A DNA stretch of 22,731 nucleotides from a virus (Duplodnaviria > Heunggongvirae > Uroviricota > Caudoviricetes). The DNA is taken from IMG/VR virus record IMGVR_UViG_2526164602_000021, one strand, 5' to 3'. The stretch's first letter is position 1. Each line of letters starts with the position of its first letter. The position numbers were made by a program. Below are positions 18,001-21,000 of the stretch, in pieces.

Positions 18001-21000
18001 GCAGCAACATCGCGCTGGCGCACCTGCATATCAGTAATGGTTGCGTTTGCCAGCTCCAGCTCTCTGGCTTTTTTATCGCGCTGCGCTTTGTAGGTGATGA
18101 CGTTATCGCGGTAATGATTCAGCCCCAGACTAAGCGCACCACAGACCACCAGCAGAATAACGGTAAACGCGGAAAGCATTCGGTTTATGCTCACCCCACC
18201 AGCCCTGCCGAAGTCAACGCCATCCAGGTTATGGAAAGAAAAAGAACAACCAGCATTAGTGAAAATGAAATACCGACGATTACACAAAGGCCCTTCGCCA
18301 GCATTATGAGTTTGTCTGACATCTTTACCCCTTAATAGCAGTAATTAACCGGGCAACCACCCATAAAAACGGAATCAGCCAGACCAGCAAAAATTTCCAG
18401 TCCGTTTTTATCATCTTCATGCTGCGGTAGCTCTCCATGCAGCAAGCAGACCAGCAATCCACTGAACACCTTTTGGGGTGAATTTAACCTGCGTAAAAGC
18501 ATGACCATTGCCCGCCTCGCCCGTTTTCACGCTAAACCGCCCCGCATCCAGGTGATGCGAGTAAGGCGTCATTTTTCCAGCGAGGCGATACATTATTCCG
18601 TTCTCCAACAAAAACAGCCGGAAATCGGTTTCTTTGATACCGAGTAACTTAGCAACTTCCCGGAATCCCATCAGACCAGATGCTTCAACATAGTTATCAA
18701 CAAATTCAGCCTTCGGCGCTGCTATTGCCAGTTGATTTTCCAGCACTGCTTTCTGTTCAGCCAGTTTTGCCGCAAATCGCAACGCCTCAGGTAAAGTCCG
18801 GGGGATCTGAATACCATGCATCGCTTTGAGTCTTGCCAGCACAGAACGACGAACGGCCTTTGACTCCCTCATGCCAACGAGCATCATCTGGTCAAAATCC
18901 AGATCATAGTATGCCGTTCTTGTCTGGTTATTGTTTAACCGGAATTTTTTTCCGGTTCCATCAAGCTCTAGCTCATCCTCAATTTTTGCAAGAAACTTAC
19001 GCGGTTCATGAGGGACTTCTCCGGCTTCTGCCCGGGCTGGATTAATAATGTTATTCAGAAAATCCAGACTACTCATGGATATTTCATGATCGACAGAAAT
19101 CATCTCTTTCATGGTTGATTCCTTTTAGTGATGAACCCTGCGCACAGGAATAACCAGCCCAAAGAGGGTTAACCAGACCACTGCCGGTTATCCACCAGGG
19201 CTCATCCTGAAAGGTTCTTTGGTTTATTTACGCTTGTGCGAAGCGCAGAAATGACAAAGGCACCATTACGGTGCCTCTGCGTGAAATAATCTGCCTAACT
19301 TTATTCACTTACATTTTGCCAGTTCGCAGGATTTCGTGTTATCCGCCCGCGCTGGCCAACGTCATTTTTCAGCAAAATATTCTGCTTATCTGTCGATTCC
19401 CCAGCACGCCAGCGCGCTCTCCTGGTCACGACGGGATACCTGACCATAACAGTTATTTGAGCGAATACGGCAGTCTCTGCCACCGTCCTTAATCCACCAG
19501 CGAATCGCTTCGCAGGCACCTTTTCGATCTCCTGCATTAATTCGTTTATAAAACGTCGACGGGAAACACTTACCGGGGCCAATGTTGTACGGACAGAATG
19601 ACGCAATCCCCGCTTTCTGGGGTTCGGTCAGTGGCACTCTGATGTTTTTCTCCACCCATGCCAGCGCCTTATCACGCTCAATGGCGTTAACCCGGTCGCA
19701 TTTTTCCTTCGACAGCTTCATGCCAGGAATAACAGGCTTACCATCCACCCGGGTGGCTCCACGGCAGATGGTCCAGATACCCGCACCATCACGGTATGCT
19801 GTGGTGTGGTTACCTCCTTTTCATCCAGAAACTGGTCGAGGATTTCAGGCGCAGGCGCACCTGCGGCAATCAGCGCCAGAACGGCAGCCGACAGGCCGTA
19901 TCTGATTTTTGCGTTCATGGATATTTATCAGGGTTTATCGATTTCAAATCCCTGGATATGTTAAGTCTTCAGGCCAGCGGTGGAGTCTTCAGAGAACCCG
20001 TAATTATTCCCGGTAGTTTTCCTCTGTAGGTTATCAACACATCCTGCGCCTCTAAAATTACGGGACGCTTTTCCGGTAACGGACCATCCCCTTCACATAA
20101 CCCGGCAGCAACATCCATGAAAAACTGCTTCGCCTGCTTTTTCGCCTCAGCTTCGTAAAACTCCAGCGTGGCACCTTCAGTACGGTCAAGACTAATCGCC
20201 ACATGTGGCAACAACAACGACGGATGCCCGCCAATTTCAAGTGCCACAGTAACAGCAATCTTATCCGGGTAATTATTTATCTCTTTAACAACCAGTTCGT
20301 ATTTTTTCTTCATCGCTTTAGTCTCCCCGCGCCGTCTTACGGCGGTCCTCCCTGATTTTGAAATACAGGTTAGTCAGATACGTCAGCAGGCCAAACAGCA
20401 GACTCCCCAGTACACCTATTGCCACCCACTGGGACGGAGAGACTTTGTCCAGCAGTTGCAGTAACCAGTATCCCGTCCCTACCGCTGACGTGGTGTATGA
20501 CACACCTGTTGTTATTTTTTCCATCTGGTACATACCCCGTCTCCCGTTATCCGGAAGCTGACAACAATAAAAAAGCCACCAGTTAACTACTGATGGCTCT
20601 GATAACTCATGCAGGCGTCTCAGACGACCCACTGACACTACCGGTGAGTTTAACGATACCTTCCATTTGACTGGCTCACTTTTTATGATGATGCCGGTGC
20701 ATTTATCTCCAGCACCAGACTTTCTATCTCAACGCCATACGCTGCATTTTTTGTAACATCCGTCAGCGTCAGCGCATTCAGTCCCAGTGTCAGACTGTCT
20801 TTTATAACCTGGAATGCCGGGCCAGCCACTCCATTCAGTTTCGGAGTAACCGTGGCACTGCCGGCGGTGAACACCAGCTCCAGCGTCTGCCAGTCGTTAC
20901 CGTAATCGCCGAACTCCCCCAGCTTCGTGTTTCCGGCTTTCCTGTGATGCATCAGATTCACTCTGCCGTCAGTGGTCTGAGTAAAGTACGACATCAGGAA

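Follow-up and report, generated by a model that had tools for sequence, protein, structure and literature searches.

The question raised by the lysis region of the Caudoviricetes virus record IMGVR_UViG_2526164602_000021 (IMG/VR; 22,731 nt, the whole of which we call the window) is whether two very short open reading frames (ORFs), lying between a KilAC-domain antirepressor gene and the i-spanin gene Rz, are genes at all and, if so, whether they take part in lysis or are only lodged among its genes. The original prediction had described hydrophobic ORFs of 31 and 43 aa (here ORF1 and ORF2), chained from the KilAC gene into Rz by overlapping or near-abutting stops and starts, and the coordinates, the lengths and the coupling proved exact: the KilAC gene ends in ...GCA GCA TGA at 18419..18417, overlapping the ORF1 ATG (18420..18418) as ATGA; the ORF1 stop, TAA at 18327..18325, is separated by 2 nt from the ORF2 ATG at 18322; and the ORF2 stop, TGA at 18193..18191, leaves 11 nt between the end of ORF2 and the Rz ATG at 18179. 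The good ribosome-binding site claimed for ORF2 is likewise present, as the Shine-Dalgarno (SD) sequence AAGGGG ending 5 nt before its ATG. Judged from the conservation of their sequences, both ORFs are genuine small membrane-protein genes.

Since chance alone readily produces ORFs of such length (4.5 kb contains 71 with 20 aa or more), it is conservation, and not mere existence, that constitutes the coding evidence. For ORF2, whose protein is MSDKLIMLAKGLCVIVGISFSLMLVVLFLSITWMALTSAGLVG (43 aa), residues 1-43 align over their full length with positions 7-49 of the 49-position profile phrog_4906 (E 6.6e-24), and the frame is open in 28/28 unique nucleotide alleles, its length being kept. Residues K4, V14, G17, S19, F20, S21, L22, M23, L24 and V25 are invariant in 28 sequences, as is the core G17-x-S19-F-S21-LMLV (GISFSLMLV). 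The pooled ratio of nonsynonymous to synonymous change (pN/pS) is 0.53 (codon-bootstrap 95% confidence interval, CI, 0.35-0.79), and it falls to 0.21 in the transmembrane (TM) core (codons 12-26) but is higher at the two ends, with 0.83 for the N-terminus and 0.61 for the tail. The protein is strongly hydrophobic (grand average of hydropathy, GRAVY, 1.75), with one 19-residue segment and a best 19-residue hydropathy of 2.77. The family is narrow, given that only 28 of 1.84 billion cluster representatives were found with its profile; in a collection of 5.8 billion proteins it forms 70 protein clusters, nearly all from E. coli and named 'hypothetical protein'. Among 5426 complete E. coli genomes ORF2 is found in 1697 (31%), with 4592 occurrences in all and as many as 11 in one genome, and RefSeq annotates it in every E. 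coli genome row listed, an identical protein being the hypothetical protein WP_001280923.1. The word 'unannotated' in the original prediction holds, then, for ORF1 in the RefSeq rows listed and fails for ORF2, and both families are already catalogued in PHROGs, that of ORF1 as phrog_6632.

Some further observations concern ORF2. The resemblance between its MSDKL..LCVIVGISF and the MSRV..ICIIVCLSW of lambda Rz had made it a candidate for a duplicated Rz membrane anchor; this likeness is by eye only and the candidate was rejected, local alignments with five Rz N-termini being no better than composition-preserving shuffles (p 0.02-0.85 in 15 comparisons, none of which survives multiple testing). 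On the opposite strand a hydrophilic ORF of 73 aa (window 18114-18335, +) is open in nearly all alleles; since the positions of its start vary from locus to locus, we read it as the mirror of the hydrophobic coding frame. A scan of 185,579 GTDB species-representative genomes with exact ORF2 motifs, which would miss divergent alleles, gave as its only match a 328-bp contig, NZ_JPLE01000251.1, assigned to 'Xanthomonas pisi DSM 18956'; this contig, on which ORF2 is accompanied by the 3′-terminal part of a P22-like ant gene (97% to PA28 Ant), is most likely E. coli phage contamination of the Xanthomonas pisi assembly.

ORF1 (MKMIKTDWKFLLVWLIPFLWVVARLITAIKG, 31 aa) is also strongly hydrophobic (GRAVY 1.06, one 19-residue segment), and its TM half is homologous to the phrog_6632 family by both nucleotide and protein alignments, although in the window it covers only the C-terminal half of that family, matching positions 20-43 of the 45-position profile (E 1.1e-4), while a 45-aa Enterobacter relative (P0084) matches positions 1-45 (E 1.2e-23). 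In loci without KilAC, the 13 codons 5′ of the internal ATG read (M)ID[FI]SKLIRELRL, and apart from one conservative I/F substitution the differences among alleles are synonymous (ATT/ATA, AGG/CGG, CTC/CTA/CTG); the start codon of these standalone copies varies between TTG and GTG, with GGAG(G) 5-7 nt upstream, and the members of the family in databases, from E. coli, Salmonella, Providencia, Citrobacter, Enterobacter and Klebsiella, have 44-50 aa. On this comparison the full-length gene of the family is one of 44-45 aa, initiated by TTG or GTG. Its most conserved part is the cytoplasmic N-terminus together with LPNWKFLL[IV]W, whereas the C-terminal half exists in two versions, ...IPFLWVV..LI.AIKG and ...IRWW. 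The N-terminal segment (M)ID[FI]SKLIRELR.M is present in all standalone members; the window has MKMIKTD instead, at the KilAC junction, and its homology to the family breaks just 5′ of codon W8, the replacing sequence overlapping the 3′ end of KilAC. From these alignments, the ORF1 of the window is a TM-only, N-terminally replaced derivative of the 44-45-aa protein.

When divergent alleles are included, codons 8-31 of ORF1 give a pS of 0.52 and a pN of 0.069 (pN/pS 0.13, the neighbouring endolysin having 0.12), with variable sites distributed 8/5/17 over the codon positions, and the standalone 44-aa form gives 0.12 (CI 0.03-0.25). The amino-acid conservation in relatives, on which the original prediction had staked its two ORFs, is hence found for both, most clearly in ORF1 and in the core of ORF2. 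At first ORF1, with its few clusters and its premature stop in five loci, had seemed the less convincing of the two; adding those divergent alleles overturned this view, and the reversal was in turn qualified by the lack of the conserved N-terminus in the window copy; in other words, ORF1 stands as a real and constrained family, whereas its copy in the window may be a relic. ORF1 is intact in all 45 KilAC-linked loci retrieved (some contigs being counted twice), and ORF1-like sequence occurs, in about 1,000 copies, in 849 of the 5426 complete E. coli genomes, for which none of the RefSeq rows listed annotates it, that of the enteropathogenic strain E2348/69 included; a few GenBank records (P0071) name the 31-aa form 'membrane protein'.

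Hydropathy and flank charges of both proteins fit a single-pass topology with the N-terminus inside, and from the distribution of charge we infer that each would be inserted N-in/C-out in the inner membrane, as for Rz, the peptides ending 2-12 residues past the TM segment. Both are thus small proteins with a TM domain encoded in a lysis cassette. Neither one matches a described holin family in Pfam (the cassette's own holin matches PF04971), and the features of spanins that were sought in them, namely a periplasmic domain, a lipobox and likeness to the N-terminal TM domain of Rz, were not found.

Comparison of the endolysin-to-spanin interval in about 170 loci places the pair in a wider setting. 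The order of the window, R - KilAC - ORF1 - ORF2 - Rz, stands beside others: R - P22-like Ant - ORF2 - Rz in 933W, PA28 and other Shiga toxin (Stx) phages, where the Ant stop overlaps an extended ORF2 start as TGATG; R - ORF1 - ORF2 - Rz (L037-L041); R - ORF3 - ORF2 - Rz, ORF3 being a gene of 48-60 aa (phrog_1115), which is the commonest order among ORF2-bearing viral contigs; R - ORF1 - ORF2 - ORF3 - ORF4 - Rz, with an ORF4 of 28 aa, the commonest context of ORF1; and an order in which DNA methyltransferase genes are inserted between the mini-ORFs and Rz (L023, 1376-2143, and L048, 4138-5073; PF02086, D12 class, and PF01555, N6/N4). From these inserts, together with Ant and KilAC, the interval between endolysin and spanin is an insertion hotspot. 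KilAC is absent from most of the loci that carry ORF1 or ORF2, a distribution that marks it as inserted secondarily, upstream of the mini-ORFs, so that the tie to KilAC which the original prediction had drawn does not hold: the pair is commoner without it. The place of the ORF1-ORF2 pair between endolysin and i-spanin is kept while the families of holin, endolysin and spanin change, as at L116, with a lambda-S-type holin (PF05106), an Rz of no more than 44% identity, and an endolysin of 137 aa whose N-terminus is polar and which no Pfam lysozyme family matches; at L117, where a glycoside hydrolase family 19 (GH19) endolysin and a phrog_214 i-spanin surround the pair; and in Enterobacter prophages with other holin families and a GH19 endolysin, where the 45-aa relative of ORF1 precedes phrog_1026/1275 spanins. 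In the loci inspected the stop of ORF2 abuts or overlaps the spanin start (ATGA or GTGA), and Hafnia phage yong2, with an endolysin and a spanin of the L117 type joined by an overlapping stop and start and no mini-ORFs, offers a natural 'empty site'.

The mini-ORFs also seem to have exchanged parts. ORF1 aligns with the C-terminal TM helix of ORF3 (z 4.3; W-x4-V-x3-P-x-L-x3-A-x-L-x2-A-x-K) and ORF4 with its N-terminal part (z 6.0), which suggests, from the alignments, that ORF3 (phrog_1115/4493; L050 3804-3986; L002 2708-2830 and 2842-2928) is composite and that the mini-ORFs are a recombining paralogous set. In Salmonella phage SPN3UB (L170, NC_019545) an unannotated hybrid lies directly before Rz at 1967-2104, of 45 aa from a GTG or 32 aa from an ATG, with an N-terminus of the ORF1 type and an IRWW C-terminus of the ORF4 type. 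The 400-nt gap between lysozyme and Rz in this phage is 'empty' in RefSeq, and a further hydrophobic ORF of 36-38 aa (1695-1811) overlaps the lysozyme stop.

Ahead of the mini-ORF chain stands a hairpin, AAAACCCCG...CGGGGTTTT, with a T-rich tail, which is homologous in 10 of the 12 loci tested (L002 2378-2410; L170 1897-1931; L174 2435-2466; L116 2893-2926; and others) and is common to E. coli, Salmonella and Enterobacter loci with different endolysins, these being relatives without KilAC or Ant. It has an A-tract 5′ and a T-tract 3′ and a folding free energy (dG) of -11 to -22 kcal/mol, and because of this symmetry it could terminate transcription both ways. A Klebsiella locus has a different strong hairpin in the same position, whereas in the window and in the Ant-type Stx locus L003 other hairpins precede the inserted antirepressor gene, the first of the two between endolysin and KilAC in the window being followed by UUUGUCAUUUCU. 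Consensus scans found no sigma-70-like site on the coding strand between hairpin and ORFs and, within the window, no promoter-like site antisense to the ORFs; at L002 one such site lies antisense to the ORF1/ORF2 junction, with a 9/12 consensus match where 0.9 is expected by chance.

The lysis cassette of the window (Table 1) is read on the minus strand in the order holin, YdfR/DUF1327, endolysin, hairpin spacer, KilAC, ORF1, ORF2 and Rz/Rz1. Compared with the otherwise identical copy of E. coli E2863, whose locus has an intact R and a 100%-identical ORF2 protein, endolysin R has lost 1 nt between 19816 and 19815 (GAAAAGGAAGG -> GAAAAGG-AGG), which splits the gene into ORFs of 66 and 120 aa. 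The deletion is probably a real allele, since the same truncated match pattern recurs in an IMG/VR contig (L007/L094), and owing to this frameshift the cassette of the window is defective and cannot work as it stands. For Rz the sole SD-like sequence is the G-rich GGTGGGGTGAG in the last codons of ORF2, which ends 10 nt before the ATG; the proposed overlap of the ORF2 stop with the Rz ribosome-binding site is thus only borderline. There is also an in-frame GTG at 18194, whose overlap with the stop of ORF2 would read GTGA, and in the relative L023 the sequence runs ATG-GTG-AGC... (MVSINRILSAF...), with ATA in place of the Rz ATG of the window and no ATG downstream, so Rz may start, on this comparison, at GTG 18194 rather than at the RefSeq-style ATG 18179. 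Elsewhere in the window (~1043-1390, minus strand) there is a second antirepressor-like match, to PA28 Ant (tblastn, 62% identity over residues 4-120).

Table 1. Genes and elements of the lysis region in the window.
Feature	Coordinates	Strand	Match or basis
Class II holin, phage-21-type (pinholin family)	20318..20533	-	PF04971, E 1.6e-32; 'class II holin family protein' at E2863 locus
YdfR/DUF1327 gene, between holin and endolysin	19969..20313	-	PF07041, E 7.4e-43
Endolysin R, signal-anchor-release (SAR) type (phage lysozyme), inactivated	19386..19918	-	PF00959 on 3′ part; E2863 alignment
Two stable RNA hairpins, in 270-nt endolysin-KilAC spacer	19229..19280	-	fold -26 kcal/mol, z -4.97
KilAC-domain antirepressor gene	18417..19112	-	PF03374, E 2.7e-28
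ORF1, 31 aa, single predicted TM helix	18325..18420	-	partial phrog_6632 match
ORF2, 43 aa, single-pass TM microprotein	18191..18322	-	phrog_4906, E 6.6e-24
Rz i-spanin gene	17721..18179	-	PF03245, E 2.2e-49; RefSeq start = ATG
Rz1 o-spanin gene, embedded in Rz	17783..17968	-	PF06085, E 7.7e-21

As for translation, the homologue of ORF2 in Stx phages is the novel gene XECs191 of E. coli O157:H7 Sakai (Hücker et al., 2017; PMC5597208), predicted there as an inner-membrane protein with 1 TM helix, and in Neuhaus et al. (2016; PMC4765031) it is EDL933_1392. Its transcript reaches 30 and its footprints 12.6 reads per kilobase per million (RPKM), with a ribosome coverage value (RCV) of 0.43 and a coverage of 0.55 (PMC5597208), these values being those of the first listed condition (LB, by the order of the paper) and just exceeding the thresholds of 1, 0.25 and 0.5. 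Detection of translation, the other check put forward at the outset, is to that extent available for a homologue of ORF2, whereas peptides of the ORF1 type are in neither of the two ribosome-profiling (Ribo-seq) supplements (PMC5597208, PMC4765031). A literature search for functional work on the two ORFs returned only these two Ribo-seq catalogues, a search with WP_001280923.1 was empty, and a survey of 279 Stx phages (PMC8136144) makes no mention of them.

What these proteins would do is a different matter. The roles in lysis timing, as spanin accessories or as toxins that had been proposed for them would all fit the context, and the account that we prefer, although only tentatively, is that ORF1 and ORF2 are putative dispensable inner-membrane accessories of the membrane stage of lysis. 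The ancestral unit would have consisted of the terminator-type hairpin, an SD sequence, the 44-45-aa phrog_6632 gene and then the phrog_4906 gene abutting the spanin start. Into it a KilAC module would have been inserted, between hairpin and ORF1, replacing the conserved cytoplasmic N-terminus, so that the leftover 31-aa ORF1 would reinitiate on the KilAC stop (ATGA) while ORF2 stayed intact. Transcription would be carried out only by the Q-antiterminated late RNA polymerase, as the upstream hairpin and the want of a detectable promoter suggest, and translation would pass along a coupled chain from KilAC to ORF1, ORF2 and Rz, as the stop/start overlaps suggest. The peptides would then enter the inner membrane beside the holin and the i-spanin, where the invariant G17-x-S19-F-S21 face of ORF2, which suggests helix-helix packing, would make TM contacts with a partner, and they could modulate the timing or efficiency of holin triggering or of spanin action. 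A role specific to the release of SAR endolysins is unlikely, since the pair occurs both with pinholin/SAR systems and with canonical holins and soluble endolysins; it is the i-spanin that is the constant neighbour. A bolder form of this idea, in which the unit of hairpin, phrog_6632 and phrog_4906 would be an unrecognised portable lysis-regulator module placed before any i-spanin (Rz, phrog_214, phrog_1026), we regard as doubtful.

Several observations weigh against this account. The link of the mini-ORFs to lysis is positional only, PHROGs gives both families as of 'unknown function', Pfam (at E up to 1), NCBIfam and PADLOC have no match for either ORF, and the promoter and terminator calls are consensus scans. 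For ORF2, constraint is modest outside the core, and pN/pS alone does not separate its sense frame (0.53) from one of the antisense frames (0.53-0.61), which is no less open; the sense frame is chosen for its conserved start, SD sequence and stop position, for the strand of the operon and for its hydrophobicity. The cassette is dispensable, since the Qin and DLP12 prophages of K-12 have no mini-ORFs and their R overlaps Rz. Moreover, Ant, KilAC and the two DNA methyltransferases (D12 and N6/N4), clearly non-lysis genes, share the interval, and in Klebsiella grimontii VNST01000037 (L175, 2433-2638) a phrog_6632 member with a hairpin, SD sequence and GTG of its own adjoins not lysis genes but baseplate and tail genes (Pam3_gp18, sheath initiator, Baseplate_J). 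These last facts keep alive the possibility, which we hold to be rather unlikely though less so than the other alternatives, that the pair is moron-like cargo unrelated to lysis, settled at a permissive site of the late operon and acting on host membrane proteins or on incoming phages, for instance through superinfection exclusion or, in the manner of many small TM proteins of bacteria, through the regulation of a transporter or a protease of the host. Between cassettes that are unrelated the hairpin travels together with the ORFs, and the XECs191 footprints, marginal as they are, come from uninduced cultures of Sakai, where spontaneous induction could also explain them. However, the coding strand has no promoter-like site between hairpin and ORFs, so expression in the lysogen would not be expected, while classical morons have an upstream promoter and a downstream terminator; PADLOC, as said, is silent on both; and all the loci inspected but one have the mini-ORFs between endolysin and spanin, with ORF2 glued to the spanin start.

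Alternatively, the ORFs could persist as a translational relay that takes ribosomes over inserted DNA to Rz by stop/start coupling, or as leftovers of recombination, their products having little or no function. Every junction couples (ATGA between KilAC and ORF1, the 2-nt gap between ORF1 and ORF2, TGATG between Ant and ORF2, ATGA or GTGA between ORF2 and spanin), the SD-like sequence of Rz is inside the last ORF2 codons, and hybrids such as that of SPN3UB exist. This reading applies most strongly to the truncated ORF1 of the window, for which its probability is higher: this copy lacks the most conserved segment of its family, IDFSKLIRELR, the KilAC-linked clade has 4 nonsynonymous changes (T6M, R24Q, K30N, G31R) versus 1 synonymous and hence no sign of constraint, and codon 25 is a premature stop in five of the standalone copies. 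For the pair as a whole we consider it improbable, because the amino-acid constraint is clear in standalone ORF1 and in the TM core of ORF2 with its invariant GISFSLMLV, and a pure relay would not keep hydrophobicity, length and residues across E. coli, Salmonella, Citrobacter, Enterobacter, Klebsiella and Providencia. Very improbable, in our judgement, is a membrane-depolarising toxin of the type I toxin-antitoxin kind, checked by an antisense RNA; size and hydrophobicity recall the Hok/Ldr/Ibs class, and the symmetric hairpin (A-tract 5′, U-tract 3′) could end an antisense transcript, but the promoter-like site of L002 is at chance level and has no counterpart in the window, no Rfam family was found anywhere in the window, the genes are co-directional in a polycistronic late operon rather than stand-alone toxin and antitoxin loci, and up to 11 copies of ORF2 are tolerated per genome. 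The antisense promoter, its evidence being of chance level only, was accordingly set aside as a candidate together with the toxin arrangement.

If the preferred account of accessories to lysis is right, and holin or spanin action is modulated by the microproteins, a paradigm system would gain a further level of regulation, and there would be a handle on the kinetics of lysis and toxin release, as lysis timing sets the burst size of a phage and, in Stx phages, the release of toxin, and ORF2 homologues are found in the lysis cassettes of 933W-type Stx phages as well as in 31% of complete E. coli genomes. The portable module, if true, would amount to a new class of lysis regulators in about one third of E. 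coli genomes, gating spanins or sharpening holin triggering. Should they be neutral cargo, they would still mark the junction of endolysin and spanin as a hotspot of recombination and insertion, and correct gene models. For this window itself the practical yield is modest, its two ORFs being real but known to the catalogues, its ORF1 truncated and its endolysin frameshifted.

Among known systems, phrog_4906, phrog_6632, WP_001280923.1 and XECs191/EDL933_1392 are direct sequence homologues, labelled as hypothetical or of unknown function, and the PHROG, RefSeq and Ribo-seq sources do not give the position before the i-spanin, the pairing of ORF1 with ORF2, the hairpin or the 44-45-aa length of ORF1. 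New here are the recognition that ORF1 and ORF2 go together and keep their place ahead of the i-spanin from one type of cassette to another, the hairpin upstream of them, the 44-45-aa gene model missed by RefSeq in E. coli, and the KilAC insertion that truncates ORF1. The morons of lambdoid phages, for example the Bor-like gene that annotation places beside Rz in 933W and PA28, are likewise small, patchy, horizontally shuffled and found at late-operon junctions. A classical moron is transcribed in the prophage from a promoter of its own and is closed by a terminator downstream; the mini-ORFs, in contrast, have no detectable promoter, have their hairpin upstream rather than downstream, and are co-directional and coupled with the lysis genes. 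Regulators of the AcrZ, MgtS and MgrB class, and the toxins Hok, Ldr and Ibs, are hydrophobic single-helix peptides of less than 50 aa that act in the inner membrane. The mini-ORFs differ from both groups in having no homology to them, in their phage late-operon context, and in that no antisense RNA was detected in the window scans. The closest functional parallel, by analogy and not by homology, would be the accessories of lysis cassettes represented by LydB/LydC/LydD of P1, the single-TM-domain holin-like proteins of the LysF1b type in mycobacteriophages, the endolysin-regulating factors of Mu and ORF52 of BSPM4, which are described as dispensable for lysis itself, those that have been studied modulating holin function or lysis timing (PMC9025707, PMC13056207, PMC9239132, PMC11657625). 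Compared with these accessories, the mini-ORFs have no sequence similarity (and no Pfam holin match), are smaller than most, with 31-45 aa and one TM domain, and lie on the spanin side of the cassette rather than on the holin side; what they share is that they are small, membrane-associated, and encoded with the holin, the endolysin and the spanin.

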